Below, one piece after another: positions 4,407-21,482 of a stretch of DNA of 64,000 bases; the first letter of the stretch is position 1; each line of letters opens with the position of its first letter. The notes under the pieces are model-generated. The model saw only the letters and a program-made list of their open reading frames with translations. It was not told the origin of the DNA and made no database searches. The stretch lies in the IMG/VR virus record IMGVR_UViG_3300031949_000001, positions 1-64,000 of that record; one strand, written 5' to 3'. The position numbers and the translations under genes were made by a program. The stretch comes from a virus (taxonomy: Duplodnaviria > Heunggongvirae > Uroviricota > Caudoviricetes).

Positions 4407-4453
4407 CATCATAAAGAAGTGACAATTACCAAACCGAAATAGGTAGAGTTAAT

Positions 4454-4810: not shown

Positions 4811-4854
4811 GGAATAATTACTAGTAATATAAAAAACAAAGATTGTTATTATTT

Positions 4855-4889
4855 GTGGTAAAAAGTGGGTAATTGTGGGAGAAAGTGGG
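4855..4889 (+). promoter_or_regulatory. MraZ-operator-like GTGG(G/T) direct-repeat array
   Basis: GTGGT-N5-GTGGG-N5-GTGGG-N5-GTGGG at exact 10-bp periodicity. Confidence 0.6.
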
Positions 4890-5309
4890 TTCCATTTTGT
4901 CGGAATATCTTAAAGATGAAGCTAAGGTTGTCGATCATGTGACAAAATGATTTTAATTCCCCTCACCGTTACACCCCCTAAACCCTTGATATTACTAGTA
5001 ATAATGTTTTTGAACAATTTTGTAATGGTCTGGATTGCTCCAGGTGTAGTATGACATACCGGCTACAGTGTGAACGAGCCTTATGCGTGGATCAAGCTCT
5101 GTCTCCGGATGTCGGTAGAAAGAAATTGGGCTGAGTGTCGGTGTCCAAGGACAAAAGTCCTCTGCGTGCTTCAATTTCTTTAACAATTCGGCGATGGTGA
5201 TGTCCATGAGGTTCCTCTCCTATGTCTCTATGGGTGTAAGACTGCTCAAGGATGCCTTAAGTGACATAAGGCATGCTTGAATAGACTCAGCCTAAGGGGC
5301 TTTTTGTTA

Positions 5310-5600
5310 ACAAAATGGCTCATAAATGGTTCAAATGGCTCGAAATTGGTTCGTTTTTTGTTTTATCGGGTATTTTGTAAAAAATTTTGTGAGGTTTGTC
5401 GAAAATGGGGTCGAAAGGTTAATTTAATTTTACAAAATGGCTCAAACTGATTGTTATAGCATTGTTAAACGATTGACAACACTTGTGAACATGGTCAAAC
5501 TTTAACAATTAACAATTTTTCACAATTGACCGGCGATTTTGTCAATGTTAAATGACTGTTAACAATTTTTTAATGAGCAGGCTGGCAATACTTCCGCCAG
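5310..5600. repeat. AT-rich noncoding region with short helically phased repeats
   Basis: AAATGG(C/T)T x4 at 10-11 bp spacing; several TTGTNAAC/TTGACAAC/TTAACAA motifs. Confidence 0.5.
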
Positions 5601-5654
5601 CATGAGACTATTATACATTAAAATCAATCGGATGTCAATGTTTTTTAATTTAAC

Positions 5655-5741
5655 ACAAAAGCGAAAACCCATACCTCTCCCCTCGGGGCGCTTGCGCCTT
5701 CGATCTGCAACCATTATAGCAAAAAACTTTGTTCAAGTCAA
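5655..5741 (-). ncRNA. Promoter-driven short RNA element, GRGAGGUAU family, copy A
   Basis: TTGACT-17-TATAAT, then hairpins and GGGGAGAGGTAT; nearly identical to copy E. Confidence 0.5.
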
Positions 5742-6059
5742 GCGAAAAGGCAACAAAAATCCTTTTCAACAACGAAAATCTTTAAAGTCTGTAAAACGTG
5801 AGACTTTTTCACTTTTGTGTCATCAATCTTTGACAATTTTTAACAATTTTGTTTTCTTCCTCTTGGAGTATGGACTTATTTGATGCCATACAAAGGATAC
5901 ATCGACAAAATCGAGAAGAATTTAACAAAAATCAACAACGGGTTTTACAATTTCCCTGATTCAAGGGCGTATGTGCTATTGTATCACAACCAGTTTCCTA
6001 ATGCAAGGATGCTCGCGACTGGCACCAACGGAGAGCCTTAAGCTTTCAAGTGTATTTAG

Positions 6060-6132
6060 TGTTGATCCATACCTCCCCACTGGTTTCTGATACCATGAAA
6101 GTGATTATACACTCTCATAGCCATTTTGTCAA
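6060..6132 (-). ncRNA. GRGAGGUAU element, copy B
   Basis: TTGACA-17-TATAAT, then ATGGTATCAGAAACCAGTGGGGAGGTAT. Confidence 0.5.
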
Positions 6133-6138
6133 GCGGGT

Positions 6139-6366
6139 TTAGTCGCCTTTGATGATAATTCGCTCTTCGAGACCATTCTCAGGTGCTGCCACGAACGAAT
6201 ACGGGTAGGTTTCGCTCTTAACCTCTGGTGCTTCGATGATATACACGCTCCCAATGCCTATCATGGGTGTCGTAGCGACACCCCTAACGATGCCTTTGAG
6301 GCGCTTGCCGTAGATCAGGTTGCGAACCCACACTGTAGCACCATCTTTGTACTTGAAATCGTCCAT
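6139..6366 (-). CDS. Hypothetical protein
   Basis: MDDFKYKDG..., last gene of a tightly packed minus-strand operon. Confidence 0.6.
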   Translation of the reverse strand: MDDFKYKDGATVWVRNLIYGKRLKGIVRGVATTPMIGIGSVYIIEAPEVKSETYPYSFVAAPENGLEERIIIKGD

Positions 6367-6367
6367 T

Positions 6368-6565
6368 TTATTTGTTCCTAAGAAATTTAACATGATTGTT
6401 GAACATTTCCACATCATCCCGATGAATCTTAATGAAATGGTAGTCATCCAGGTCGCCTATATAGCGCGCTCCAGAGGCTTCTAAATAGCGAACGCCATAC
6501 TGACACTGCAACCCGACCTTAGAGCGGCAGATGTCACCAAAATCGATGTAATCGTCGTTGTTCAT
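6368..6565 (-). CDS. Hypothetical protein
   Basis: Translationally coupled minus-strand operon. Confidence 0.6.
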   Translation of the reverse strand: MNNDDYIDFGDICRSKVGLQCQYGVRYLEASGARYIGDLDDYHFIKIHRDDVEMFNNHVKFLRNK

Positions 6566-6765
6566 TAGCTCGCTTTGATGATTTCGATGGGTACACCAGG
6601 AAAGTGACGCTCACAATACGCCTTTCCGTTGCCTTGTGCAACCCTAAATCCAAAATCGAGATTCTGCGCGCTCAATCCTGGCATGGTAGACGGTAGATCA
6701 GTCTGAATTGAGACATGATCAGCAAAATGTTTGTGCTCAACGATCTGGATGTAGAGTAATTTCAT
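6565..6765 (-). CDS. Hypothetical protein
   Basis: Coupled operon. Confidence 0.6.
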   Translation of the reverse strand: MKLLYIQIVEHKHFADHVSIQTDLPSTMPGLSAQNLDFGFRVAQGNGKAYCERHFPGVPIEIIKAS

Positions 6766-6771
6766 AATTTT

Positions 6772-6990
6772 TCAACTTTCTTCAAATTCTTGGTGCTGGC
6801 TGATGAACTCGACCGCTTCCCAATGCATTTTCTCGACTGCTGGAGACCTTAAGGCTTTGATTGGCTCACTTTCACTTCCCATAAACAAACGGGAGTTAAC
6901 CTCGCGTGTGAAGGAATTGCGCGAGGCTGAGACTGCACACAAGTGCTTAAATGCTTCCTTGAACAGCTTTTCGTAGTTTGGAGTTGACAT
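6772..6990 (-). CDS. Hypothetical protein
   Basis: Coupled operon. Confidence 0.6.
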   Translation of the reverse strand: MSTPNYEKLFKEAFKHLCAVSASRNSFTREVNSRLFMGSESEPIKALRSPAVEKMHWEAVEFISQHQEFEES

Positions 6991-6993
6991 TTT

Positions 6994-7266
6994 TCACTCT
7001 TGGAGGATGAATCTCTCGATCAATTTGTCGTCTATGCCTGGACGTGAGCTAATGTTGAGCGATTCGCTCCTGCCGTAGCATTCTGCATTGAGTTCTGGTG
7101 CTCTATAGAAGCCATACTCGCCATTATCGATGCTGAACGATACAAACCCAGCCGCGACAACCTTGCGCGCTCCAGCGACCTCTCTATGATTGAGCAAAGA
7201 CGCGAAAACAATGGGCATTTCCAGCCCGTTGCTCTCCACGATGATGTATTTGGTGTGATCGAACAT
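6994..7266 (-). CDS. Hypothetical phage protein
   Basis: Coupled operon; AAGF...CYGRSESL motif. Confidence 0.65.
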   Translation of the reverse strand: MFDHTKYIIVESNGLEMPIVFASLLNHREVAGARKVVAAGFVSFSIDNGEYGFYRAPELNAECYGRSESLNISSRPGIDDKLIERFILQE

Positions 7267-7267
7267 G

Positions 7268-7558
7268 TTACTCGACGGTTTCCTCGTCGTCTTCGTCGGA
7301 ATCCTCTTCCGTCAACTTGGCTTTGAGGTTATCGTTCCACTCTTGGATGCGCTGCTCACCAATCCAGGTGACTAGCGCCTTTTGTGCGCCGGGATTGTCT
7401 GACAGGAAGGACAGAAGTTGGCTCTCACCCATGAAGGTGGTGTGGTAACCTAGTACGCCTACGATGGTTTCCAGGCGCCTTACGCCATTGTCACTTTCAA
7501 ACTGGAACATCCGTTCCTGCTCGATATAGGCTTGAAGATTGCGTTCGACGGTTTTCAT
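7268..7558 (-). CDS. Hypothetical protein with acidic C-terminus
   Basis: Coupled operon. Confidence 0.65.
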   Translation of the reverse strand: MKTVERNLQAYIEQERMFQFESDNGVRRLETIVGVLGYHTTFMGESQLLSFLSDNPGAQKALVTWIGEQRIQEWNDNLKAKLTEEDSDEDDEETVE

Positions 7559-7813
7559 TTGAATTTGAATGTCTCTTTGAGTTGGGTTTCGGTGGGTTTC
7601 TTCCAGTTGAGGATTCTACCAGTTTCCACGTCGATGTCAAGCATCACGTAGTCACCATAATGGTCTTCCGGAAACCAACCAGGAACGTAATCATCGTACT
7701 CGGAACCGATTTGGCGCCCGTCTGAGTCGTGCAAGCTGGCGGCGAATAGATCGCGCTGCACTTCGCTGATATCGTGATCGTCTTGGCTTTCATTTCACAT
7801 TCCTTTGTAAATT

Positions 7814-7954
7814 TGGCTATCCTCGGAAGGCTTCGAACCCCCGTCCTCTTCGTTTACTCTACTCGTTTCCGGTTAACAAGCAGAGCCGCGACTTGGCTAG
7901 CACTTATCGCAGCTACGCTCCCGAAGTGCTCTAACCTACTAAGCTACGAGGACA
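7814..7954 (-). ncRNA. tRNA-like RNA whose anticodon loop is replaced by a two-hairpin insert
   Basis: Acceptor (T)GTCCTCG/CGAGGAT(A) then GCCA; D arm GCTT/GAGC; stem CTTCG/CGAAG encloses ~70 nt; T arm GGGGG-TTCGAAG-CCTTC. Confidence 0.75.
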
Positions 7955-7989
7955 AAGGAAGTATATCTTAAAACCGATCCTTTTGCAAG

Positions 7990-8571
7990 CTAAACTAACC
8001 AGTCTAGGCGGGCAGCGGAGAAGGAAGGCGTTGCGACAGGCTTGCGGTAAGTGGTCGAGCCACCTATCGTGTGACCCGGCTTGAGGACGCCTTTACATTC
8101 CAGGCAATGGTAGTTTTTTCCACCTAACTGCATCTTCTTGTGGCGAATAGCCCCGACCATGATGACGCGACAATTGCACGAGTACGTATATTGAGTCGTC
8201 TGGCGTGCCTTGGCGTTGCTCACGTCATACTGATGACAGCGATCAGCAGGAAGCCCGAAGGCGCTCATGACGCGCTGCCATTCGTTACCGTGGGGCTTGA
8301 TTCGCTGAGTGGGGTGGAGAGCGTACGCGATCAGGTGCGCGACCTCATGCCCGATTGTCTGCTTGACGTAGTTATCGAAGTTCTCAGCGCAAAGCGTTTG
8401 ATTGACCAGAACGTAATTGTTCCGATAATCCGCTTTGCCGCCTATGGTACCCCGAAGGTCGAACTTGACGACAGGCATCGCGAAATCTTTGGAGTAACGA
8501 ATCCGCGCTTTTTGAACGTAAGCGACAACAGCCAACTGAACTGCTCTGATCTGATCTTGCGTTAGTTTCAT
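7990..8571 (-). CDS. SprT-like zinc metalloprotease
   Basis: HEVAH...PHGNEW zinc motif plus YxCxC...CxxC. Confidence 0.9.
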   Translation of the reverse strand: MKLTQDQIRAVQLAVVAYVQKARIRYSKDFAMPVVKFDLRGTIGGKADYRNNYVLVNQTLCAENFDNYVKQTIGHEVAHLIAYALHPTQRIKPHGNEWQRVMSAFGLPADRCHQYDVSNAKARQTTQYTYSCNCRVIMVGAIRHKKMQLGGKNYHCLECKGVLKPGHTIGGSTTYRKPVATPSFSAARLDWLV

Positions 8572-8683
8572 GACTTCCTCTCAGTTGTTGAAGCAATTGT
8601 ACAGATAAACTTTGTTTAAGTCAAGTCTTGACTCGAACTAATTTTTACTATATACTCTCTTCATCGTTACCGAGGAAAATGAA

Positions 8684-8953
8684 ATGCTCCCGAGATTCTA
8701 TCACTGCGGTTGTTGCGAACAGTACCATGCCGTGGAATTCGATGGCGATTGCCGCGACGATTCCGCGCGCTTCAATCCCGAAGACCTGGACGAGCAGTAT
8801 GGCGATCATGGCTGGGAAGAAATCGATCAGGAAGACCTCGAAGACTATGAAGACTATGAAGACGGCATGTCAGATGCTGAAGCCGATGCGGATACGCTAC
8901 GCTCCGCAGGTTGGGGAACCGACGAAGATTATGGTGGGTGTCACGGGGATTAA
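8684..8953 (+). CDS. Acidic hypothetical protein with CGCC..H motif
   Basis: Own promoter TTGACT-17-TATACT and GAGG RBS; very D/E-rich. Confidence 0.7.
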   Translation: MLPRFYHCGCCEQYHAVEFDGDCRDDSARFNPEDLDEQYGDHGWEEIDQEDLEDYEDYEDGMSDAEADADTLRSAGWGTDEDYGGCHGD

Positions 8954-8974
8954 ATTTATCATTCAGTTCAAACC

Positions 8975-9059
8975 CCGTTTTTATAAGTGGATCTCCATAC
9001 CTCTCCACTGGTCGCCGATACCATAAAAGAATTATACCGGAAAACTTTGTTCATGTCAA
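8975..9059 (-). ncRNA. GRGAGGUAU element, copy C
   Basis: TTGACA-17-TATAAT, then ATGGTATCGGCGACCAGTGGAGAGGTAT. Confidence 0.5.
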
Positions 9060-9326
9060 CTACCAAATGTCTTCACTGTATAAATTCGGTGGCCATTTCA
9101 ACGCTTTGATTTGTCCCGCTGCGATTGCGACCCTTGCACCCGCTTTGCGCATCACGAAACGCCCGTCATTCAGTACAAAACCTTGCTCACCATTGATCGG
9201 TATCGGCTCGCCTGACTCAGCCATGAATTTGATGATGTGATGATGTCTTGCTGGCGGCGGGAGAGTCCAGACCTTATCATCGCGCCCAAGAATGCCAGCG
9301 GCAACGACTGTGAGACCTTCGGTCAT
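9060..9326 (-). CDS. Phage hypothetical protein
   Basis: RHHHI...QGFVLNDGRF...LYSEDIW; start approximate. Confidence 0.7.
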   Translation of the reverse strand: MTEGLTVVAAGILGRDDKVWTLPPPARHHHIIKFMAESGEPIPINGEQGFVLNDGRFVMRKAGARVAIAAGQIKALKWPPNLYSEDIW

Positions 9327-9511
9327 AATCCCAACCATTGGGTTATCCACGAGAAAGGCGGAACCTTTTCCCACAAGTAGTGCTCGAATGGGAAACTGAT
9401 TGTAATTCCCAGCAGAAAGCTACCGACCATGTTGATGGGTTTGTATTTGTGGTAACAGCGGATAAGAAATCCGCGTTCGTCTTTATGGGTATGGAACATT
9501 TCACTTCTCGG

Positions 9512-10102
9512 TTATCGAGTGTGTGTATTGTATTCTTTTATCTTACTCTCGTCAAGCTCACCGTCCTCAAATCTTGCACCAAATCCGCGTTTTTCTCGCC
9601 TCTCGTGCTCACTTTCGGACTTGTTAAATCGTGATCGAATTTCATCCGCTGATTCGACCTTTGATGGTCCTTCTTTTCGGGCGTCACCATAACCCTTGTT
9701 GATGATGGGCGGTCTCGTATAACCCTCCGTTGAGCCTTCGGGATTGTAAGGATTGACGGCTCGAATCTTCTCTCCGTGGTCTATCAGAAATTGGTTTTGA
9801 ATCTGATACGCGAGCTTTTCATTGTACTCACGTCCGAGTATGTCTTTCTGTCTTGGGCAATAGTTCTGCGTGAAATGGACAATCTCATGACACAATGCCG
9901 ACTGTCCAATTTTTGTTTTGAGGTCTATCCGATTATCTAGATAGATGTTGCCGTCAACACACGCGCCTAATACTGGTGATCCAATGATCTGTTTGAGTTC
10001 AGCAGCAGAGACGATTGAAACTACGGGCTTCCGGACTGAATCCATCGGCTCGATGCCGTATGAGTGCAGGAAGAGAAAACAGGCTGCGATTAGTTCGTCC
10101 AT
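9512..10102 (-). CDS. HExxH metallopeptidase-like protein (DUF6647-like)
   Basis: SALCHEIVHFTQ...EKLAYQIQ; related to 46819..47277. Confidence 0.65.
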   Translation of the reverse strand: MDELIAACFLFLHSYGIEPMDSVRKPVVSIVSAAELKQIIGSPVLGACVDGNIYLDNRIDLKTKIGQSALCHEIVHFTQNYCPRQKDILGREYNEKLAYQIQNQFLIDHGEKIRAVNPYNPEGSTEGYTRPPIINKGYGDARKEGPSKVESADEIRSRFNKSESEHERREKRGFGARFEDGELDESKIKEYNTHTR

Positions 10103-10144
10103 GCCCCGTACTCTACGCTAGTTTGGTACTAATTGCAATAGTGG

Positions 10145-10230
10145 TGGTGCTGGTGGTAGGATTCGAACCCACGAAGGCTTTCGCCGCTTGCTTACAAGGC
10201 AAGTCCCGTAGTCCACTTGGGTACACCAGC
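10145..10230 (-). tRNA. tRNA-Thr(UGU) with long variable arm
   Basis: GCTGGTG/CACCAGC-A-CCA; anticodon loop CTTGTAA; variable arm CGGCGAAAGCCTTC. Confidence 0.85.
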
Positions 10231-10235
10231 AAAGG

Positions 10236-10265
10236 AAAAACCTACCACCACCGAGAGCGGTAGGC
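10236..10265 (-). terminator. Intrinsic terminator after the large ncRNA
   Basis: CCTACC...GGTAGG followed by TTTTT on the minus strand. Confidence 0.65.
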
Positions 10266-10600
10266 TAAACCTATTTCAATGAAGTCTCGGTCCAGGACAC
10301 GGTCTTATCGTATCCGCGCTGCCACATACGTCCACTGTCATCGCTTCTACGGGTTTCCCCTCCACTGCCTTTCGGCGACAGTCCACTCGGATTCAAATCC
10401 ATTTCGCGCTTAAGCTGTGTGGTTCGGCTCAACGCTTACTATCCCCGGTAATAGAGGCTAACAATCTCGGGACCGCCTTAGTATTTCGGGTCATAACTCC
10501 CGTCTTACCTACGATCAGGCTTGACCGGTGGTTCAGTTCTGGTAAGCGATGCCCCAAAGGGACTTTCGTTTAGTTTCCGCTGTACAGCATTCTAAGGAAC
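10262..10600 (-). ncRNA. Candidate large structured ncRNA (~340 nt)
   Basis: ORF-free; many hairpins including GAAA tetraloops; 5'/3' closing helix; late-promoter-like AATAAATA upstream, terminator and tRNA downstream. Confidence 0.65.
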
Positions 10601-10642
10601 AGCGTCGCTCTTTACCGTCCATTGACCAGAGAAGTATTTATT

Positions 10643-10945
10643 CTACTGCATGTCAGTCATGTCGTCAAGCATTTGAGCGAAGGTCATAGCCGACTGCCGC
10701 CTTTTAATCGTTTTTTCAGTAACGACCGGAATGCTGGGACGCTTGTCAGAGTATTCGGCGTCCATCCAACAACTTTCGCACGGATAAGATTGACGCTTGA
10801 AACCGCGCCAAACGGGACAGTCATCATCACCATACTTACAACCGTGATTGATGCAACAGTGTTCAGAATGAACGCACCACTTCTCACCAACTGGCGCTAC
10901 GAATGGCGCCGTTGCTATGAGGTATGCGTTCCAGAGGGTTGTCAT
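10643..10945 (-). CDS. Cys-rich hypothetical protein
   Basis: HCCxxHGCKYGDDDCPV...CESC. Confidence 0.7.
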   Translation of the reverse strand: MTTLWNAYLIATAPFVAPVGEKWCVHSEHCCINHGCKYGDDDCPVWRGFKRQSYPCESCWMDAEYSDKRPSIPVVTEKTIKRRQSAMTFAQMLDDMTDMQ

Positions 10946-10947
10946 GC

Positions 10948-11151
10948 CTATACCTTGATGCCAATCGCGAAGGCGATGACTTCACCATCGGCACCCGCCT
11001 TGACGATTCGCTTGGTGCCGCGCTGATGCCAAGCGTTCTTTTTTCCATGCTTGGGCGTGGTAGCCTTCGGTCCCTTACGACCGTTCTTGCGCTGCGCGCT
11101 CCACTCTTTCGCGGCGCGGTTTTGCTTGGAACGCTTGCTGTTGGCAGACAT
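10948..11151 (-). CDS. Small basic protein (paralog of 47555..47743)
   Basis: AKxWSAQRKxGRKGPKAT motif; AGGAG RBS. Confidence 0.75.
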   Translation of the reverse strand: MSANSKRSKQNRAAKEWSAQRKNGRKGPKATTPKHGKKNAWHQRGTKRIVKAGADGEVIAFAIGIKV

Positions 11152-11503
11152 TTCATTTACTCCTGGTTAGAAAGAAAATTGAGGTTGCTGCAAGCAGCTT
11201 TATGTCTAGCAACGCTAGTTTATTTACGGGTTCAGACCCGAACACCCCATCAACAAAAACAGTATATCTTAGTTTTGTTTTTTAGTCAAGTTATTTTGTT
11301 TTTCGATTTCTGTAGTCAGTCTTAACCACAGGCTATCTTCGTATTTACCAATGTTATATCCTTCCGACTCAGCTTTGTGGATTTCATTGGACAATGCCAA
11401 TGCTTTTTCAATCTCGAAAGATTCTAGCACTAGCATAAGTTTTTGGGTAAACATTTATTTCTCCGTTGGTTAATAGACAGTATAACTTATTTTTATTCTG
11501 AAA

Positions 11504-11890
11504 TCAAACTAATCCGTGTAGAGCGTCATCCATGCTCTTCGGGTTATCGATGTCTTCGCCAACCAGCGTATTGTAGTCTGAACCATCGTCAGCAGATTCA
11601 ATATCATCCATTTGCTTCGGACCGTAGATGTCACCAGCTTCCGCTGCTGCATCCCAAAGCGCACCAACCGGCTCCTCGAAAACGGGATCATACTCCTCGA
11701 TGTCATCCGTGGTGTACTCGGAGACGCACGGATTCCCGTTGTGATCGATCCACATACGAAACACGTAATCCGAACCCGGATCATGCGAGAAGTGAAAGCT
11801 CCTCGCGTCGATGATCGCATCACCTTCGGACGCGAACGGCTCGGAAATATCGGGCGTGCCCGAACGCATGTACAGGTTAAAGTGTTTCAT
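11504..11890 (-). CDS. Acidic hypothetical protein
   Basis: Minus-strand operon; D/E-rich. Confidence 0.65.
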   Translation of the reverse strand: MKHFNLYMRSGTPDISEPFASEGDAIIDARSFHFSHDPGSDYVFRMWIDHNGNPCVSEYTTDDIEEYDPVFEEPVGALWDAAAEAGDIYGPKQMDDIESADDGSDYNTLVGEDIDNPKSMDDALHGLV

Positions 11891-12051
11891 CTGTTACCCT
11901 TTTCGGAGAAGTGAACCACCAGCCAATCATGTCGAAGCTGACATTGGAAGGGGAGCATGTAATCGTAAGGCAATGAATACCACTACGGATAGGGTTGTCA
12001 ATTGCACCCACGAAGACGAGATTTGTAGAGACAAGCATCATACTAGTAATC

Positions 12052-12582
12052 TTACTTGTTTTGTTTTTCGATGTCAAGCAGATGCCGAACCTTTTCGATT
12101 TCGACTGTGGTATGTGCGACACCACCAGCGTTAAGGTCGATGTACCACTGAAGCACTTCCGCCCGAGTCTTCAGATTGTTGACGTTCATCAGGAAATCAC
12201 AATGCGCCAACCGAAGCTTATCGGTGTACTCCTCACGCTTATGTCCGAACGCTGGAATCTCATTCCCTAGGAATCGTAGCACTGCCGAGATGCGTTGCTT
12301 CCCATCTACTAGTACCATTGGACCTTCAAAGGTTTGCATCCACCCCTTGCAGTTCCAATAGATCACGCGGCTCGACTTACCACCCTTCAGCATGAATTCG
12401 ACGTAACGGATTTGCTGCTCTTCCGACCAGACATGCCCACGCTGAAAATCGGGGTCCATCTCGAAGGTGTACATCCGCTCATCGCGATTGCTGGCAATCC
12501 AATTTTCGAGGTAATCCCAACCAACGTTAACTTCGTAGGAACCGGACCGCGTCATTTGTGGAATGTCAGCAAACTTAGGCAT
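12052..12582 (-). CDS. Stand-alone DUF262 (ParB/Srx-fold, GmrSD N-terminal-like) protein
   Basis: PDFQRGHVW and VDGKQR motifs. Confidence 0.85.
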   Translation of the reverse strand: MPKFADIPQMTRSGSYEVNVGWDYLENWIASNRDERMYTFEMDPDFQRGHVWSEEQQIRYVEFMLKGGKSSRVIYWNCKGWMQTFEGPMVLVDGKQRISAVLRFLGNEIPAFGHKREEYTDKLRLAHCDFLMNVNNLKTRAEVLQWYIDLNAGGVAHTTVEIEKVRHLLDIEKQNK

Positions 12583-12787
12583 TGGCGAGCCGCCCAGCGT
12601 CGAGTAGAACGGAACCGATGAGCCTATCCAGCCCATCGGCATCCGTTGCGTTATACTTTAGGACGTACATCCAATCGGACACGTCACGATACTGCTGCCC
12701 GTTGGACTCGTCATACTTCAGCGAGCAAAGCGCGTCAATGACGCCCTCTGCTTGCGCTTGTGTAAGATTGAGATTGAGTGTTACCAT
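12575..12787 (-). CDS. Hypothetical protein
   Basis: Coupled operon. Confidence 0.55.
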   Translation of the reverse strand: MVTLNLNLTQAQAEGVIDALCSLKYDESNGQQYRDVSDWMYVLKYNATDADGLDRLIGSVLLDAGRLANA

Positions 12788-12795
12788 TTTGGTGT

Positions 12796-13008
12796 TTAGC
12801 GGACCTTGGTAATGAACCCGTCAACGAGCGTCACGATGGCGTACCACGCATGCGGTGTGGGATAGTGCGGACCCTCGACGGTGAAGTTTCCGTTGACAGG
12901 ATCGGGCGCGTTGAACATATTGTTAGGCTGATAGATGGCGACCTTTTTGCCAGCAGCAACGGCTTCCTTGAGAGCTTTTTTCGTTTTGAAGTTGGTTTCG
13001 GTGTACAT
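12796..13008 (-). CDS. Phage hypothetical protein
   Basis: NFKTKKALKEAV...EGPHYPxPHxWYA; own promoter upstream. Confidence 0.75.
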   Translation of the reverse strand: MYTETNFKTKKALKEAVAAGKKVAIYQPNNMFNAPDPVNGNFTVEGPHYPTPHAWYAIVTLVDGFITKVR

Positions 13009-13084
13009 TTCGTTTAGCCTCTCTTGATGTAGCTATTATATCGATAAACTTTGTTCAGGTCAAGAGCTATTTTAATTGAATAAG

Positions 13085-13157
13085 ACAAAAGCGAAACCCC
13101 ATAGCGCTATGCGCTTCGACCGAAGGTCTATACCTCCTCGCTGGTTAATACACAACC
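13085..13157 (-). ncRNA. GRGAGGUAU element, copy D (no own promoter)
   Basis: AACCAGCGAGGAGGTATAGACCTTCGGTCGAAGCGCATAGCGCTATGG; hairpins match copy F. Confidence 0.5.
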
Positions 13158-14108
13158 GAACCCAGCGCCTCATACTCGGCAGTGTGCGCGTTCGGGAATT
13201 CGCGGTCGGGTGCGATAATCAACGCCACCAACTCCGCTGCTTCCTTGTTAGGAGCATCGACAGAGATGACAAGGTTACTGTACGCAACGCGAGAAATGGT
13301 TACATTGAATAGCATTTTAACCTCGATTGGTTTGGTGGCTGGGATTGCGCAGTATCGCCTTTATATCGACTCGCGTCAAGCGGTTTGTTTAGCGTGCTAT
13401 GCTATTCCTGATATTCGACTTCGGTGATCTCGCAGGTTTCACCTTGAGAGATAACCGATTCGCTCTTGAAATAGGCTTCGATTGTGTCATGATCGGAGAG
13501 TTTGGACGGGTCGTCAATTCCCGTATCCAGGTCCACGTCTTCGACTAGCCAGTAATCCCGGCACCAATCGGCGACCACTGCCTCAGCGTTCGCGTGCGAG
13601 TTCCCAGCATACAGAACGTCGATACCTGCCCCGGTCGAGATGATTGCGAGATGAATTTTCATAGTGGTAACCAGACTCCGATGATTGAATTATACCACGC
13701 GACTGTGGCGATTGTCATGCTTTCGCCCGCTCTTTTGAATCGAGCGAACATATAGACTTCTCCCTGCGGATTGCGGAAAATCCAAGGGCGTCGCAGTTGA
13801 TGCCGTGTCAAGTCCAGGCGCTTGCGTTTTGCCTGGAGTAGTGAATAGGTTGCTTCGTCGCCGGGCGGTGCGTAGTTACTAGTAATGATTGTCATACTCC
13901 TCCGACCTTTCGTGCTTCAACCTTTCGCTTGAGTTTGATACAGGCGCGTTTCGCGTTGCGTAGCGCCAATTTATGGAGCACTGCCTTTCCGTTTCGGTTG
14001 ATTGCGCGATATGTCCGTCCGCCAATCGTTTCGACTATGGTTTCATAAGTCCAACGATCAGGCGATACCTGCATCAACTTCCATTCCCAATGCGTGACTT
14101 CCATTTTA

Positions 14109-14843
14109 CTAGTAACTCCGAATTGTGAAACCGGTGGTGTCCCGCTTGGCGCGACCCTTTGCGTTCAGAACAATGATACTACCTTTCCTGTCCAAAAAGC
14201 GCAAGTCATTTTCGTCGCCATCCGCTACATTGTCCTGCGTCAACGCCCATGCTTTGACTTCCTTGGTACAAACCACGGTAATGGTATGTCCAAGAGTCTG
14301 TAACACGCGGCAAGTCGCATGATTGTTTTCGGCGGCGCTGAATGTCAGATGATAGTTAACCGGGAATCCCGGTTTGCCTTGCTGTAGCGCACGATACGCG
14401 ATTTTGGTGTAGTCATAGAATTGTATCGTCGGGAAGCGCTCGAACATATTGCGATGCTGCCCCATGCGAATCTTTTCCCAAGGCAAATCGCTTGTCCCGT
14501 TCGGGCGCACAACAAGCGTCAAGCCTAACTTGCAGGCACGCTTCTGTGCGTGGATGATATCCGCCTCAAGCAGAGACATGAAACGCTCACGTTGCTCGAA
14601 AAACATAACGGTGCGACGCTTGCGAGCATTCTGCACGCGGTTTGTCGTTTCACCTTTTTTGAACATTCCGCCACGCCCCGCAGTATTGAGACATGCTGCG
14701 ATGCAACCGAGCGAAGCGGACGGGCAAACTTGATAGCCTGACAGGGTGGACGGCGCCAAGTGTAGGATAACCGAGTAGTATCCGACCTTTTCACCCTTGC
14801 GGACCTTGATGTTAGCCTCAGTCAATAGATCGTAGCGTGCCAT
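14109..14843 (-). CDS. GP88-like phage protein with CX7CX3C (possible Fe-S enzyme)
   Basis: CPSASLGCIAACL, RPNGTSDL, QFYDYTK and YHLTFS motifs. Confidence 0.7.
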   Translation of the reverse strand: MARYDLLTEANIKVRKGEKVGYYSVILHLAPSTLSGYQVCPSASLGCIAACLNTAGRGGMFKKGETTNRVQNARKRRTVMFFEQRERFMSLLEADIIHAQKRACKLGLTLVVRPNGTSDLPWEKIRMGQHRNMFERFPTIQFYDYTKIAYRALQQGKPGFPVNYHLTFSAAENNHATCRVLQTLGHTITVVCTKEVKAWALTQDNVADGDENDLRFLDRKGSIIVLNAKGRAKRDTTGFTIRSY

Positions 14844-15072
14844 ATTTTACGATTGCTCCGTTTGTTGGTGCTCGCGACTTACAATATTGCTTAATACCGT
14901 TATCACAAGTGCCACGATGAGAATAATTCTCACAATCAAGAAGACTGTGGCTTCGAGTGGTCTAAGGATTGTGTCCATGCGTGTATAATACGCGAATCAG
15001 TTCATCCTGTCAAGCATTAAAATAATCAAAATAGGCTTGACGTGAACAAAGTTATTTGCTATACTGCTTCTC

Positions 15073-15315
15073 ATGGAATACGTGATCGAAATTGCAAAAA
15101 CAAACGGAACCGAAATGGTTTCGTTGAGCAAGGGCACTATCGTTACCACTACTCGCAGCATGGAATTCGCGAGCAAGTTTAAGGTGCGAGCCCGCGCCGA
15201 AACGATTGCAAAGCGCCTGCAAGGTGCGACCATTGCGCCTTACTATGGTGGCATTGTAGTCTCAAATAAGGCAACCGTGCAAGGTCCGCAAGCTGACCGT
15301 GTACGTCGGAATTAA
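15073..15315 (+). CDS. Hypothetical protein (probably leaderless mRNA)
   Basis: ATG lies 7 nt after the -10 of TTGACG-17-TATACT. Confidence 0.6.
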   Translation: MEYVIEIAKTNGTEMVSLSKGTIVTTTRSMEFASKFKVRARAETIAKRLQGATIAPYYGGIVVSNKATVQGPQADRVRRN

Positions 15316-15349
15316 CAGAATTTAAGGTTTCCTCCTGTGTGGCGTTTTT

Positions 15350-15384
15350 GGCGGGTCGAGCAGTAAGCTCCCCGCCGTTTTTTT
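15350..15384 (+). terminator. Intrinsic terminator
   Basis: GGCGGG..GAGC/GCTC..CCCGCC followed by a T run. Confidence 0.75.
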
Positions 15385-15399
15385 CAATTCTGTAATATA

Positions 15400-15482
15400 A
15401 AGTAGAAGTTGATACCTTCCCCCTCGGGGCGGGTTGGCCTTCGATCTATAACCATTATATCCTAGAACAATGTTCGAGTCAA
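15400..15482 (-). ncRNA. GRGAGGUAU element, copy E
   Basis: TTGACT-17-TATAAT, then AGATCGAAGGC..GCCCCGAGGGGGAAGGTAT. Confidence 0.5.
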
Positions 15483-16070
15483 GGATTATTTTTACTTAAA
15501 TATCCGGTTCTGGCGGCGCCTTGCATCAGCGCGAGCGCGACGCATGCGCAAGCTGATATCATCCTGTTGGGTGGTGTCATTCCAGCGGAAAAACCTGTAG
15601 ATCAGGCGCTTAAGCATTTTGTCCCTTGGTATCAACGTAACCGTGCCCCTTATTAGCACTCACATACAAGTCGGGACCATAACACTTGACGTAATCGACT
15701 TCCCCGTCATCGGACTGAATCTCAGACCAGTGCGAAAGGAATATCACCCGAAAAAGCTTACCGTCCGCCTCGCGCTTGAGAACTGAAGTTGAAAGCATTG
15801 TTAATTCCTTATGACGCTTATTTTACCAAGCTTACACCCGAGTTTCTGTTCGAGTTCAAATGTAGCGTCGAGAATTCCCCAACCGTCCTCGCTGTCGTTC
15901 AGGTCCAGATACATATGCTCGGTGCCTGCTTTGACATTCGTGTAACCTGCGGCGATTGCGCGCTCGCAAAGTTCCTTGACTGCAACTGGTCCGGTGTAAA
16001 CCCTTGAACGCTTCAGCATGTTTTGCTCCTGTCTCGATTTTGTTTATTATATCAGAAGGGTAGATCAGCG

Positions 16071-16325
16071 TCAAGCACTTCCAACTGCTTTGAAGTTCGA
16101 GCCTTCCTTACGTGCCTGCTCCATTTCCCACTCGTAATCAGCCAGAGCTTCGAGTTCGTGCGGATGAGGCTGGGCAACGCCATGATAATGCGGGTTGCGT
16201 TCCCAAGTATCGTAATCGGAAAGAAGCCATTGAGAATCAGGAAAATCCTCGCCTACGTTCCAAGCCCACTCGCGACATGCTTCGCCCGGAGTAGCCAGAT
16301 GATCGTTTTCGTCGTAGCCGAACAT
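16071..16325 (-). CDS. Hypothetical protein
   Basis: QWLLSDYDTWERNPHY; divergent promoter pair upstream. Confidence 0.65.
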   Translation of the reverse strand: MFGYDENDHLATPGEACREWAWNVGEDFPDSQWLLSDYDTWERNPHYHGVAQPHPHELEALADYEWEMEQARKEGSNFKAVGSA

Positions 16326-16442
16326 TCGTTTTGTTTCCCTTTCGTTAGTGTGAAGCTATTGTACGCTATTATTTTTATTAAGTCAAGCTTGCATTTTGAT
16401 TTTTATCAGTGTATAATAGCCGTCATCAATAGGAGAAACCCA

Positions 16443-16685
16443 ATGCAAGTTATTACCATGTATCGCTCGACCGATGGATCGTCTTTCGGTACCGAAGAAG
16501 CATGTAAGGCGCACGAGTTGATACTCGATGCTACCACACAAATCATGGAGCTTTTGGAGCGTGATGATTGGGTTCGCAGCAACGGCAATTTATGCGGTCC
16601 CGCCACCGATTTTGTGAGCCAATTGCTCAGTACCAATTTCGGGTCGAAAGTCTATACTATCCTGAGCACCGTTCATCGCAAATAA
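16443..16685 (+). CDS. Hypothetical protein
   Basis: AGGAG RBS and promoter upstream; start re-called. Confidence 0.65.
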   Translation: MQVITMYRSTDGSSFGTEEACKAHELILDATTQIMELLERDDWVRSNGNLCGPATDFVSQLLSTNFGSKVYTILSTVHRK

Positions 16686-16732
16686 CACTTGCGACAGAGC
16701 ATTAAGTTTGCTATAATGCCTTTGTTGGTTAA

Positions 16733-17281
16733 TTGGAGATGAAACGAATGAATACCGAACCGCGTTTTACCACAATCGAGCAGTTGGTTCCCTTCCTCAT
16801 GTCCCTGCGTTCGGCTCAGGTTGCGACCATTGTCGCCGTGACCGAAGTCAAGATGCGCAAGACTGGCAACCCTTTCATCGGGACTCGTAAGGTCCAGAAA
16901 CTCAAGGTGGAAGTCAACAACAATTACGAAAACAAGGTGAATGACGCCCGCGATGCTGAAGGCTCTGCGACCGATTTTGAAGCCAAGCCCTTGCAATGGG
17001 GTGAGCATGCGAGCGCTGCCGTGATCGAAAACAAGGGTGTGTTGTACCTGCAAACCATCGTCCTGGAGCGCGACGCTTCGCCTACCTACATCGATTTGCA
17101 CGGGAACTATGTTCCGTGGGAAAGCCTCAAGGAATTCATGCCACCGTATCGCCCGAACGCCCGCCAAGAACTGGAGCAAGAGGTTAAGGTTCGGACGTGG
17201 AAACTCACCAGCATTTACGCGCTGTGGATGGGCGACCGTCATATCTACAAGGCTTCTGGCATCGTGGGACCGCAAGCATGA
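16733..17281 (+). CDS. Phage hypothetical protein
   Basis: KMRKTGNP...YENKVN; codon usage consistent with neighbours. Confidence 0.75.
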   Translation: MEMKRMNTEPRFTTIEQLVPFLMSLRSAQVATIVAVTEVKMRKTGNPFIGTRKVQKLKVEVNNNYENKVNDARDAEGSATDFEAKPLQWGEHASAAVIENKGVLYLQTIVLERDASPTYIDLHGNYVPWESLKEFMPPYRPNARQELEQEVKVRTWKLTSIYALWMGDRHIYKASGIVGPQA

Positions 17282-17483
17282 AAACCTTTCTCAAATTCAT
17301 TGTAGCAATCGCCCTAGTGGTGGTTGCTGCTTTCTACCTCACTTTCGTCCTGATCGTGCTGGCTTGTATCATTGGGCTAGGCTTCTTGCTGATTTGTTAC
17401 TGGATTGTATCAGGCGTTCCGTTCTATAGTAAGAAGAACGGCAAGATTGTCGCCGAGTATCGCAGACTTCGGAGGGTGAAATA

Positions 17484-17747
17484 ATGTCAAATCGAGTCTT
17501 TCTTCTATCGACCACGTTCGTTGACTGTTCGGGCGAGTCCTATGGCTTTCGAGTCTCGGATGAGTATGACAAGGCATATTACAATTACCTTCAGTTGCCC
17601 GTCAAGGACGACATGGAAATCCTCAAGGTCGCAATCGAGACCGATGAGTTTTCACAATTCGCTGACTTTCTCCGAGACATCGAGTCGGGTTTGACAATTA
17701 ATGACACTTACTACGACTGGAGTCAGATAAAAGAATTCTTCGAATAG
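17484..17747 (+). CDS. Hypothetical protein
   Basis: GGAGG RBS. Confidence 0.65.
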   Translation: MSNRVFLLSTTFVDCSGESYGFRVSDEYDKAYYNYLQLPVKDDMEILKVAIETDEFSQFADFLRDIESGLTINDTYYDWSQIKEFFE

Positions 17748-17842
17748 TATTGCTTAATGCAGCCATTTCTGATAATATGGTTGCGTTAGGTGGAAAAGGT
17801 TCCCCTAAACACATTGTAGTCTAACCCTTTAAGGAGTTTAAC

Positions 17843-18124
17843 ATGAATTTCACCGTCGATCAGTTTTCCGAAGCAAACAGCGTCGAGAAGCCCGTTGCGT
17901 ATGGTTTCCTGCGCTTCCTCGCCGAACGTGGTTTCGCCACTACAACCAAGACCGACAAGGTTGCGGGCAAGCGCGGCAAGCCCAGCACGATTTACACGCT
18001 GACCGAAGGCGCCGTCGCCTTCCTGGGTTCCAGCGTCAAGGAATACGTGGCGCCTGTCGCCACTGTCGAAGCCGCCGTGGCTGTCGAAACCTCTCAGGTT
18101 GCCGAACAGTCCGCCGCTGTCTAA
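17843..18124 (+). CDS. Putative winged-helix DNA-binding protein
   Basis: GKRGKPSTIYTL wing-like motif; strong promoter and AAGGAG RBS. Confidence 0.55.
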   Translation: MNFTVDQFSEANSVEKPVAYGFLRFLAERGFATTTKTDKVAGKRGKPSTIYTLTEGAVAFLGSSVKEYVAPVATVEAAVAVETSQVAEQSAAV

Positions 18125-18204
18125 TCGAAGCGGAATATCTTGACAGAATTCAACGGTGCGGGTATTATACCTGCACCGTTTCTCATTAACAAGGACTAAC
18201 TATC

Positions 18205-18624
18205 ATGGCAGAAGAACTCAAAAGTTTTCATGTCGTTTGGACGTTGGATATCGACGCTGCCAATGCGCTCGACGCTGCAAGACACGCTCGTGAGATCCAG
18301 TCGAAGCCCGATAGCTGGGCAACATTTTTCCAGGTGAAGCCGTCGATTGGTAGTGGCAAGGTCGTGAGTGACGCCATGCTGCAAGATAAATACGGCTATG
18401 AGTCTATCGACCTCGAAGAGCAAGCGCAGCGCGAGGCGCTCGCGGGAGAACAGAATCAAGACATGCCCGAGCGTTTACAACAACTGCTGTGCGCTTCATG
18501 GGCGCGTCCCGAGGATGACTACGTTATCCCCGCCTTCTTGCTGCGCCATGCTCCGAAGACCTACACCGTGGTTATTCTCGTTGACCCGAAAGGCATCGCA
18601 GTAATCACGCACCGGGAAATTTGA
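18205..18624 (+). CDS. Hypothetical protein
   Basis: Own promoter and RBS. Confidence 0.65.
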   Translation: MAEELKSFHVVWTLDIDAANALDAARHAREIQSKPDSWATFFQVKPSIGSGKVVSDAMLQDKYGYESIDLEEQAQREALAGEQNQDMPERLQQLLCASWARPEDDYVIPAFLLRHAPKTYTVVILVDPKGIAVITHREI

Positions 18625-18719
18625 AAATGATACAAAACATGCGTTACAAACAATCTTTGTATTGCGAATGTGAAGATTGCGAATGTGAAGATTGAATCGG
18701 TTTTAAATGGGGAAATTCT

Positions 18720-18828
18720 TTAACTTTCCCGTACTTTAGGAACGGGAAAGTTAGAATCGATACCTCCCCACTACCACCTGATGGCATCGAATATAAATAA
18801 TTATACTCGATAACTTTGTTTAAGTCAA
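18720..18828 (-). ncRNA. GRGAGGUAU element, copy G, ending in a 12-bp hairpin
   Basis: TTGACT-17-TATAAT; TCGAT..AGTGGGGAGGTATCGA; then TAACTTTCCCGT/ACGGGAAAGTTA. Confidence 0.55.
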
Positions 18829-19556
18829 GCTCCTATCGTCCATCGCTTGCTTGAGGGTAGCGAGTTTTTCTTTGATTGCATCGCCTACAATAGCCCGCCC
18901 AACCTTTTCGATTGTCGCGATTTGCCCGAGAAGCCCTCGATATTGCTGAATGATCTCCTGATCGGTCATTGCGTTCGGATTCATCTTAATCATACAAGCC
19001 CCATTGAATAAGTCCAAAAATCCTCGGACGCTTTGAAAAACAGAAATTTAACGTTTACTTCCTCGTGGACTGCATCGGACTGGAAATTGATATAGAGCAA
19101 GCCCAGCATCTTAAATGCGCTCTCCCTCTCGTCTTGATCCATGCCTTCTACGTGCTCGTCCCATTCGCGATAAGCATCTGTAAATTCTTTGTATGAGACC
19201 TTACCGGGATATGGCATTTACTTTCCTAACACACTTTCAACTGCTTCGTTCAGAGCGATCACGAGCGCGCAAGCCTCATCGGCTGATACGGCACTGTGAA
19301 TGTGTTGGGGGTCGAAGCCGCGAGAACGAATAGCCTGACCCCGTAAGATCGCGAATTCCCACGCAACAAAGACGTTATAAACGTCCGAGTCATCAGTGAG
19401 ATGCGCGGGCTCTGCGTAAAATACAGGTTTCATGTTATTCCTTCGGGAAATCTTCGTTAGCGACTGGATTGTTGAGCATCCAGATATGGTATTGATACGG
19501 CTGGAGATCAACACGGACAACCGTGCCGAACCCAAGCAAAAGGAAAATCTGCTGCA

Positions 19557-19892
19557 TCATGCGTCAATCCTACCTATCGCGTACGCATCATCGGCGTACT
19601 CTTGCAGCGACTTGGTTGCCTTGAACCACATGTCGCGCTCGATCTTGAGACCGAAGCGAAGCTTGACGCTAGTAATCTCAGACAATGACGCATTGCCCAA
19701 CTCAGGCTCACCCATCCCCAAGTCACAGAGACCATAAAGCGTATCGCCATCGGCATCCAACTCGGTGAACAGCCAAGTAGCTGCACCCATCGGATTGAAG
19801 AGTTTGAGGACAGGTTTGACTTGATCGGCAGGTAAACGCGCCAAAGCGTTCTGTTCGAGGCGGGTGCGAATTTCCTTGGTGAGTATTTTCAT
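19557..19892 (-). CDS. DUF2958 family protein
   Basis: KLFNPxGAATW...YGLCDLGMGEPELG...IERD. Confidence 0.85.
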   Translation of the reverse strand: MKILTKEIRTRLEQNALARLPADQVKPVLKLFNPMGAATWLFTELDADGDTLYGLCDLGMGEPELGNASLSEITSVKLRFGLKIERDMWFKATKSLQEYADDAYAIGRIDA

Positions 19893-20010
19893 GGCTTTCC
19901 TCAGTTGATATAGAGAGTATACAGATAATATTTATAGAAGTCAAGCCTTGACATGATAAAGATATTAGCGTATAGTCTCATACATAGAAAATAACACCGG
20001 ATACTAAAAC

Positions 20011-20550
20011 ATGATCGATATCAAATCAATTCTCGCTCAACAACCACAGCGCCAAGATTCGTTGATGGATCAACTACAAGATTTGCGCATGGTCGCCAAT
20101 CGTTGCGGCATGTACGATGCTGCCGATTATTTGCGCACCTTGATCGAGGACAATCTGACACCGAAGTGTAAACTTCCGCATGCTCCATACACGCCGAACG
20201 ACTGTAAAGGATTCATGACTGACGGGGATGGTAATTTGATCCCGTTGGACAAAAGCGCCCGCGATCCTCAATGGATGCGCGAAGCTATCGCCTATCTTTT
20301 CGATGACTACAAAATCAGTGCGATCCAAGTCATCCGCAATGCATCAGGTTTGTCGCTGAAGGATTCGCTTCTCATCGCCACCCATCTCGAAAAGGATTAC
20401 AAGCTGGGTGTCTATGATCCTGCCAAGCATAGCTTCCTCGCTGAAAAGCCACTCGATACGCTCACTCCGCTTCAGAACGAAGTATATCACAAATTCACGG
20501 CACTGATCGAAGCGGAATACAGCGAACTGCTTGATCGTCTTGACAAGTAA
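20011..20550 (+). CDS. Hypothetical protein with L7/L12 C-terminal-like motif
   Basis: KISAIQVIRNASGLSLKDS. Confidence 0.6.
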   Translation: MIDIKSILAQQPQRQDSLMDQLQDLRMVANRCGMYDAADYLRTLIEDNLTPKCKLPHAPYTPNDCKGFMTDGDGNLIPLDKSARDPQWMREAIAYLFDDYKISAIQVIRNASGLSLKDSLLIATHLEKDYKLGVYDPAKHSFLAEKPLDTLTPLQNEVYHKFTALIEAEYSELLDRLDK

Positions 20551-20814
20551 GTTCAAAACAGGTACAATGTAGTTAATGTGATTGAGGAACGATGGCGCGA
20601 AGTAGGGACGCCGAAACCGCACAGAGCCTCGAAAGCAGAACACCGATGTAGTATGGATCGACAAAAGACGAAGGGTTGGCTCTCTTTGTTAACAAATCGA
20701 TCACCTAGCCAAAGGGAATCGGGGGCATTGCGCTCCCGGCATCGTTTAGTAGAATAGGTCAAGGCGCCGAGCACAATTAAATCGGTGTCCTTGTCCTATT
20801 CTCTTTAACATCCG

Positions 20815-20913
20815 TTGCTCCATAGCGCCATGCGCTTCGACCGAAAGTCGATACCTCTCCACTGGTTCCCGATACCATAAAAGAATTATACTAGTAAACT
20901 TTGTTTGTGTCAA
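20815..20913 (-). ncRNA. GRGAGGUAU element, copy F
   Basis: TTGACA-17-TATAAT; ATGGTATCGGGAACCAGTGGAGAGGTATCGACTTTCGGTCGAAGCGCATGGCGCT. Confidence 0.55.
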
Positions 20914-21154
20914 TTGATATCGGTACAAAGTCTTGCGTGTGCTGCTTTCTTTGCAAGAGACCTACGAACACGGCGCCTCGCCATGCGTCCCGAGAATCCA
21001 CCACCTAACCACATCTTTTTCTTGAAGTGTTTCATTGTATCCTTGTGAGAAAAAAGAGTGAGCTTCTTGGCGGTTTCGGTCCTATGTACTTCTGCCCTTA
21101 ATCCCGGAGCATACGTCACTCACAACACCAGTTTACTAGTAAACTTTGTTCTTG

Positions 21155-21478
21155 TCAAGTGACGAAAACCACCCAATCCCCAGCTTCGTCATACTCGGCA
21201 ACCAATTTGCCCTTACTCAAGGATTTCGGAAAGAAGCCAGGAAACAGATCACGCAATTTACCTACCATGCGGACATCCCAAGCCATAACTACGTTGTGGG
21301 CTTTTCCTGCGAGTTCCTTGATGGATACATCGAAGGGTTGACGCTCGGCGACCGAATGAAACATGGCAGTGACTGCCGCCTCGTATGGGTTTGCACCACC
21401 CACGCCATACATACCACCCCGCTCGATAGCGCTAAAGACCTCGCGGGCAACTTGTTCTTTGATGGTTTCGTACTTCAT
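21155..21478 (-). CDS. Hypothetical protein
   Basis: GGAG RBS; minus-strand operon. Confidence 0.65.
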   Translation of the reverse strand: MKYETIKEQVAREVFSAIERGGMYGVGGANPYEAAVTAMFHSVAERQPFDVSIKELAGKAHNVVMAWDVRMVGKLRDLFPGFFPKSLSKGKLVAEYDEAGDWVVFVT

Positions 21479-21482
21479 ATTA

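Follow-up and report, generated by a model that had tools for sequence, protein, structure and literature searches.

The STAB-SD element of cryIIIA in Bacillus thuringiensis and the polypurine element in the early RNA of phage SP82 are 5' stabilizers, and the nut sites of phage lambda and put sites of HK022 combine a small hairpin with a conserved single-stranded block in early transcripts, ahead of terminators. Sibling small RNAs (sRNAs), among them Qrr1-5, LhrC1-5 and the csRNAs, are paralogous copies with one conserved exposed region, and sRNAs at operon ends borrow the terminators of those operons. At strong Shine-Dalgarno (SD) sites, such as that of B. subtilis hbs, the bound ribosome shields the RNA (PMC5737220). 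Abundant short RNAs that arise by premature termination just behind a promoter, and are conserved within a phage genus, were described in phiKZ, PAK_P3, YuA and other phages (PMC10914365). The ops element recognized by RfaH (GGCGGTAGCGTG, 12 nucleotides (nt) on the non-template strand) exposes the loop G4-A7, GGTA, with T6 flipped out, and its C3:G8 pair is architectural only, a swapped pair being partly functional (PMC5995543). Here, a repeated unit with the core GRGAGGUAU is described from the first 64,000 nt of the caudovirus record IMGVR_UViG_3300031949_000001, a stretch referred to below as the window, and is compared with these systems.

The unit is very probably a real RNA-level family, as judged by a hairpin that covaries and contains G-U pairs, and the most likely function of its product is that of an SD-mimic RNA, an ops-like signal for RNA polymerase (RNAP) coming second. 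The source record comprises 378,912 bp and is estimated to be 94% complete (IMG/VR); its early region, at 5.5-26 kb and about 345-371 kb, is transcribed mainly from the minus strand by consensus sigma-70-type promoters. An earlier note on this DNA, made by reading the letters alone, had listed seven minus-strand cores in the window, and all seven lie where it placed them. GRGAGGTAT itself is found five times on the minus strand (5671, 6069, 8997, 18760 and 20851) against an expected 0.59, a count reached in 0 of 100 shuffles, and degenerate copies stand at 13130 (GAGGAGGTAT, copy D) and 15412 (GGAAGGTAT, copy E). An eighth copy, H, is located at genome position 360,712 (minus strand), and the 378,912-bp genome holds no further one. 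A 37-nt covariance model recovers five hairpin-class copies at E = 1e-4 to 7e-13. Perfect or near-perfect TTGAC-17-TATAAT promoters precede six of the seven window copies, as the note had also claimed; the single exception is D, whose orthologues in two related loci (L118 and L126; L numbers designate searched loci) do have a promoter.

Like the STAB-SD and polypurine stabilizers, the unit carries an SD-like purine tract close to the 5' end of the RNA and does not use it for initiation; in those systems such a tract is sometimes accompanied by a 5' hairpin. In contrast to them, most phage copies have no gene behind to protect: B, C, E, F and G are followed by no co-oriented gene before the convergent gene, and at A, D and H another promoter precedes the next gene, so that none of the eight occupies a 5' untranslated region ahead of a stabilized coding mRNA. 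Furthermore, the invariant GAGGUAU exceeds the part that pairs with 16S rRNA, and SD strength varies by copy. The short RNAs of the phiKZ type share with the unit a promoter with a terminator close behind (predicted for the unit), but they are single-locus 5' leader RNAs of unrelated sequence, whereas here one motif with a defined, covarying hairpin recurs eight times per genome. The presence of several paralogues at operon 3' ends, with a conserved exposed part and a variable remainder, is reminiscent of sibling and operon-end sRNAs; unlike the C/U-rich anti-SD seeds of csRNAs and LhrC, however, the seed would be of opposite polarity, a look-alike of SD plus AUG, and the phage genome was found to contain no targets complementary to the core or the variable tails. 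As in lambda nut and HK022 put, a hairpin and a conserved single-stranded block stand ahead of terminators, but there are eight copies rather than two, many with nothing co-oriented to read into, and neither a boxA-like pyrimidine block nor a GNRA-like pentaloop is present. A lambda-type nut site (boxA similar to CGCUCUUA plus a 5-nt GNRA-like boxB) was rejected, the loop being 7 nt long and starting with AUC and the block being purine-rich.

The unit consists of a 4-bp hairpin with a 7-nt loop and a U-A closing pair, followed by 12 nt that end in GAGGUAU. In type 1 (B, C, D, F and G), U-NNN, a 7-nt loop starting with AUC and N'N'N'-A are followed by G-U-R-G-R-GAGGUAU-S-G, while in type 2 (A, E and H) the leader AGAUCGAA precedes a GGC...GCC hairpin of variable loop, CCGA and then the type-1 tract; pairing of UCG with CGA would give the type-2 hairpin a U-A closing pair too, and the register of type 1. 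From the closing A to the end of GGUAU there are 12 nt in about 33 distinct type-1 and eight type-2 copies, with one exception of 11 nt. The loop measures 7 nt in 32 copies, and insertions of 17 and 37 nt in two copies leave the stem intact. In 21 copies the stem lies 7 nt past the -10 element, so that the transcript is predicted to begin with pppA-U at the foot of the hairpin (hairpin from +2 in most copies); the remaining copies have a short leader able to pair further downstream. Invariance is concentrated in the AUC at the loop start, in AGU and in GAGGUAU, which is all but invariant (copy E and two relatives have A at position 27), while spacing is rigid and stem sequence is free. Beyond the tract the sequence is free to vary and ends at the terminator region of the preceding operon. 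The copies in the window are as follows.

5655..5741, minus strand: copy A (type 2); -35 at 5741-5736, -10 at 5718-5713, predicted start A5706; bulged hairpin U5703-A5683; purine tract 5682-5671 (GAGGTAT 5677-5671); U-rich tail 5670-5655; a second promoter behind it at 5638-5610 (minus).
6065..6132, minus strand: copy B (type 1); promoter 6132-6104, predicted start A6096; first hairpin (hp1) 6095-6081; tract 6080-6067 (GAGGTAT 6075-6069); model score 51.7 bits, E 7.5e-13.
8943..9059, minus strand: copy C (type 1); promoter 9059-9031, predicted start A9024; hp1 9023-9009; GAGGTAT 9003-8997; hairpin 8978-8943, common to the convergent plus-strand gene 8684-8953.
13085..13157, minus strand: copy D (type 1, own promoter absent in this strain); model score 25.5 bits; hp1 13157-13143, overlapping the stop codon of gene 13145-13315; GAGGTAT 13136-13130; second hairpin (hp2) 13128-13118; third hairpin (hp3) 13115-13103; U-rich tail 13102-13085; next promoter 13063-13035.
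15342..15482, minus strand: copy E (type 2); promoter 15482-15454, predicted start A15447; hairpin U15444-A15424; core GAAGGTAT at 15419-15412; hairpin near 15372-15345, the terminator of the convergent plus-strand gene 15073-15315.
18724..18828, minus strand: copy F (type 1, with a leader of 6-8 nt); promoter 18828-18800; hp1 18786-18772 (UGCC/GGUA); GAGGTAT 18766-18760; hairpin 18750-18724 opposite the plus-strand operon 16748-18624.
20824..20913, minus strand: copy G (type 1); promoter 20913-20885, predicted start A20878; hp1 20877-20863; GAGGTAT 20857-20851; hp2 20850-20838; hp3 20836-20824; faces the plus-strand gene 20011-20550.

The flanking hairpins reported earlier are real. Thus, hp1 (noted as TGGT/ACCA, GCCA/TGGT and GGTT/AACC) is present in all type-1 copies, while the GAC-YTTCG-GTC and AGCGC/GCGCT hairpins are restricted to D, G and a strain variant of E, in which two extra small hairpins stand behind the core; the copy E of related strains bears the D-type hp2 plus hp3 insert. 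A and D have a U-rich tail in common, and contig joints of other strains lie within units and swap hp2/hp3 and tail modules. Such strain variants, with deletions and module swaps, are represented by sediment-metagenome contigs that join across window positions 13092-15494, 15617-15805 and 11272-11767, and several of the breakpoints fall inside copies D and E. At 5678 in copy A, a strain polymorphism (A to G in the RNA sense) was seen in three metagenome runs.

The stem occurs as UGGU/ACCA, UGGU/ACUA, UGCC/GGUA, UACC/GGUA, UUCC/GGAA, UGAC/GUCA, UGCU/AGCA and UCGC/GCGA. Across 14 copies, 92.9% of stem cells were paired and 14 were double changes, a result equalled in 0 of 500 shuffles; across 32 distinct copies from relatives, in an alignment that was fitted to the covariance model and so leans towards structure, pairing was 100% with 36 double-change cells, again 0 of 500 shuffles did as well, and slid controls collapsed. 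Because G-U pairs become C-A mismatches on the opposite strand, the hairpin works in the transcript sense. Rfam has no matching entry, and the earlier claim of an undescribed multicopy family is borne out. In copy D, a rebuilt hairpin is kept despite the absent promoter. The 4-bp hairpin alone is marginally stable, and most window copies, folded as single sequences, do no better than shuffles, with the exceptions of E and F (z = -4.6 for F), whose folds are dominated by their downstream hairpins.

The earlier note had proposed a search of phage genomes with a covariance model, and had named absence of conservation outside this genome as an outcome that would speak against a family. The search found the motif conserved elsewhere. 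Near-identical DNA to the studied region is present in soil and freshwater-sediment metagenomes, and homologues of the GP88-like protein of the window (14109-14843) are graded in identity, with four contigs at 94, 80, 66 and 60% that are all syntenic and carry the unit at corresponding places. A pattern scan followed by the covariance model gave 37 matches in the searched loci, syntenic relatives included, from about a dozen metagenome contigs, and about 33 distinct hairpin-class copies were collected from the relatives and other contigs. A second large phage record (179 kb, 52% complete) has two copies. What is conserved between orthologues is the promoter and the first 35 nt or so; the remainder is replaced even between strains at 94% identity.

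Beyond this group, searches were negative. Matches of the window to Rfam 15 at gathering scores were all tRNA, as were those of 5000-21500 at E<=1. Representative genomes of 185,579 bacterial and archaeal species gave ten pattern matches, which is chance level, all of them without the stem; in viral contigs, the exact patterns of the core, of the type-2 leader and of the promoter spacer likewise matched only at chance level. The 80 viral loci bearing GP88 belong to unrelated phages in which the motif was not found, and an exact-protein look-up with one window protein gave no match. The only cultured relative found is the Xanthomonas phage XacN1, through a weak match (32% identity over part of the sheath protein), and no copy was detected in it or in the cultured phages searched. 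As far as these collections show, then, the motif is absent from every catalogue and confined to one clade of uncultivated large phages; the searched phage records include no cultured representative of it. Little of the structured non-coding RNA of large phages has been charted, and this motif combines clean covariation, rigid geometry and high copy number with a fixed early-operon place across a clade; with the 37-nt model as a specific marker, such phages can be found and their early transcription units annotated.

The unit invariably stands behind the last gene of a main-strand gene run, both in the window and in the loci L120, L121, L122, L126 and L139. Behind C, E, F and G comes the terminator hairpin of a convergent opposite-strand island, and these copies face the 3' ends of the plus-strand genes 8684-8953, 15073-15315, 16748-18624 and 20011-20550, respectively, in agreement with the convergence points claimed earlier. 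Copies A and B face the plus-strand block 14-4810, and the next promoter stands within about 30 nt behind A, D and H. Clear hairpin-plus-U terminators lie 50-70 nt behind the core in several relatives (for example, L121 and L122). Read from the sequence, the placement is the layout of small RNA genes that borrow the terminator of an operon.

The promoter class of the units also drives ordinary genes (13063, 8624, 355884 and 356387) and, thus, is not the defining feature of the unit. Many early promoters, at window 5713-21158 and genome 355884-360672, have a conserved AACAAAGTT spacer between -35 and -10; such promoters serve the RNA units as well as ordinary early genes, and they are also found in L120, L122, L126, L139 and L146. 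The promoter at 5638-5610 behind copy A is followed by a hairpin, GCUGGC-GGAAGUAUU-GCCAGC (5580-5640, minus), whose loop resembles the core, and the relative L131 has a similar AUGCUGGC... start behind a promoter; a second small-RNA family may reside in the stretch 4810-6139, which is dense in promoters and poor in ORFs. Copy H is placed directly behind a tRNA-like RNA that ends in GCGCCA (L117 6780-6900; genome about 360,780-360,900, minus). In the second large phage (L124 1540-1620, IMGVR_UViG_3300035181_001013), two direct repeats of ~37 nt, each with a small inverted repeat inside, come after the unit, and a gene that has a promoter of its own comes next.

The core had been said to resemble a strong SD sequence lacking a correctly spaced start, and no start codon was found at a usable distance. 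Of 38 script hits, of which about 33 are real type-1 copies and a few are false, 25 have an AUG that begins 1 nt past GGAGGU, with AUC or AUA in the others, and the AUG mini-frames, of 2-10 codons, are unconserved. Pairing with the nine 3'-terminal bases of an E. coli-type 16S rRNA is possible for positions 23-31, and the tract of one relative reads UAAGGAGGU. The anti-SD duplexes have energies between -7.2 and -13.2 kcal/mol; when ranked against 429 phage ribosome-binding sites, copies B, D and F exceed 99.5% of them in pairing strength and E exceeds 96%.

We assign a probability of roughly 40% to the reading that each unit is a small early RNA gene, the product of which would be a short, 5'-protected RNA that displays an extended SD mimic. 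A host-type consensus promoter would fire and the transcript would begin at the base of the hairpin, which would shield the RNA end, while the tract would act as a ligand resembling an extended SD site without a usable start codon. Either 30S subunits, through the anti-SD of their 16S rRNA, or an RNA-binding protein specific for the AUC loop and GAGGUAU would then hold the RNA near its 5' end, and the RNA would become a stable, abundant decoy or provide a stabilizing 5' cap for RNA transcribed behind it. This reading draws on the enrichment and model scores, the covariation, fixed geometry and orthologous conservation, the operon-end position and the terminators of relatives, the anti-SD strength of B, D, F and E, the loop insertions that spare the stem, the rebuilt hairpin of copy D, and the precedents described above. 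Its parts differ in strength: on balance, discrete short transcripts would be produced, while the 30S subunit or the anti-SD is a tentative candidate for the partner. More speculatively, and with doubtful prospects, the clade might flood the cell early with about eight tiny 5'-protected RNAs, whose SD-plus-AUG look-alike would engage the anti-SD of 16S rRNA, or else a factor recognizing initiation regions, as a trans-acting decoy that re-allocates or shields host translation initiation. To our knowledge, no such decoy takeover of translation initiation has been described in any phage. RNAs that bound 30S or an initiation factor would represent a new kind of host-takeover tool, if this is true.

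Several observations weigh against the SD-mimic reading. SD strength is uneven, with C, G and H only average (24-31st percentile) and A at the 13th, and the invariant UAU is unpaired with 16S rRNA. The genes of the phage use SD sites throughout the genome, with equal usage between genome regions, and sequestration of 30S would consequently come at a cost to the phage as well. The hairpins downstream of C, E and F have no good U tract in the RNA direction and are oriented mainly for the opposite strand, so that termination there may be leaky. Finally, the starts, ends and abundance of the RNAs are predictions, and a stabilizer without cargo makes little functional sense.

The reading ranked second, although unlikely in our estimation, is that the unit is a cis-acting RNAP signal similar to ops. 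The nascent hairpin and a purine hybrid would form a hairpin-stabilized pause, the non-template GAGGTAT would fold as the ops mini-hairpin of RfaH and load an elongation factor of host or phage, and the modified polymerase would pass operon-end terminators and opposite-strand islands and enter the next operon. Like ops, the unit is a leader-region element co-oriented with transcription that has a putative GGTA loop flanked by a base pair, and its invariant R-G-A-GGTA-T-S-G agrees with ops at 8 of the first 10 positions; GGTA and G2 do not vary, and the two departures from ops make up one pair, in which A:T would close the loop in place of C:G. The agreement does not extend to the pause bases T11 and G12, which are not conserved, or to position -10, where G is found in only 24 of 38 copies, and, unlike ops, the unit contains an RNA hairpin. 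The distance from this hairpin to U33 is fixed at 12 nt, which resembles the geometry of class I pause hairpins, and G is next after U33 in 25 of 38 copies, but the juxtaposition of start site and hairpin base is left without a role and no NusG or RfaH homologue is encoded by the phage. A signal of this kind would explain why the units stand just ahead of operon-end terminators, much as lambda nutR stands before tR1; the downstream operons, however, have promoters of their own, and read-through from A and B would be antisense across about 12 kb of plus-strand genes. If the RNAs do license RNAP, they would constitute a new processive-antitermination signal, related to ops in shape.

It is also unlikely that the unit is a site or decoy for a specific non-ribosomal RNA-binding protein of phage or host, which would read the AUC of the loop and GAGGUAU at a fixed distance; examples are a translational repressor, an operator mimic, and a decoy for a nuclease or defence sensor. 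Such a protein would fit the pattern of invariant loop start, AGU and GAGGUAU with rigid spacing and free stem sequence, and the marginal stability of the hairpin by itself, and the loop of a promoter-proximal hairpin nearby (5600-5580) contains a similar GGAAGUAU. CsrA, Hfq and S21 were not detected in the phage, however, the genes adjoining the units match no Pfam or PHROGs family, and no real phage gene has a matching operator ahead of its start codon.

Lambda OOP silences cII by cis-antisense, and the units might act similarly if their RNAs entered the 3' ends of convergent plus-strand genes and silenced them. That C, E, F and G face plus-strand genes and share terminator hairpins with them, as do copies in L120, L121, L122 and L139, accords with this model, but A, D, H and many copies of relatives precede a co-oriented promoter rather than a convergent gene. 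Because, in addition, the conserved part is the 5' module and not the overlapping part, and orthologous copies are wholly different downstream, cis-antisense regulation is improbable.

The note had also raised leaderless MVSxTSGEV... micro-peptides and polar DNA signals. The peptides are refuted: although an in-frame ATG stands at the predicted start in most copies, the ATG is lost (ATA, ATT, ATC) in four copies among relatives, the GAG, GUA and AGU codons show no synonymous change across about 40 copies while codons 4, 5 and 7 change amino acid with third positions frozen, and the frames stop anywhere between 0 and more than 40 codons downstream. A duplex-DNA site (operator, nick site or polar site) is very improbable: conserved blocks are spaced about 10 bp apart, but free stem covariation with G-U pairs is unexpected for such a site.

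Other candidate structures were considered and rejected. One was a further helix, with the core displayed in the loop of a terminator. It looked good in C, L131 and the D/L126 pair (AGUG/CACU vs AGCG/CGCU), and the pairing that an sRNA of this design needs is seen in C, L131 and L120, but taken over all copies the pairing does not surpass that of shuffled sequences (-5.29 vs -4.81 kcal/mol). A mimic of the sarcin-ricin loop fits only the GGAGAGG copies, and resemblances to PyrR, CsrA, TRAP and anticodon-loop sites fail because the required bases are not conserved. A CRISPR-repeat mimic (RNA anti-CRISPR) is contradicted by stems that differ between copies within one genome (UGGU/ACCA, UGCC/GGUA, GGUU/AACC), and the 185,579 bacterial genomes gave no match either.

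A few further features of the sequence were recorded. Between the plus-strand operon and copy F, window 18636-18695 (plus) holds a possible 19-codon frame that ends in CECEDCECED, encoded by a tandem 15-nt repeat. An Rfam tRNA match at 7818-7953 (minus; 41.8 bits) stands isolated within the early region, and its 136 nt, far above tRNA length, imply a large insert. The ends of the record are mutually repeated (window 1-130 and genome 378777-378912, with position 64 matching 378841), so that the contig probably closes on itself or bears a terminal repeat.

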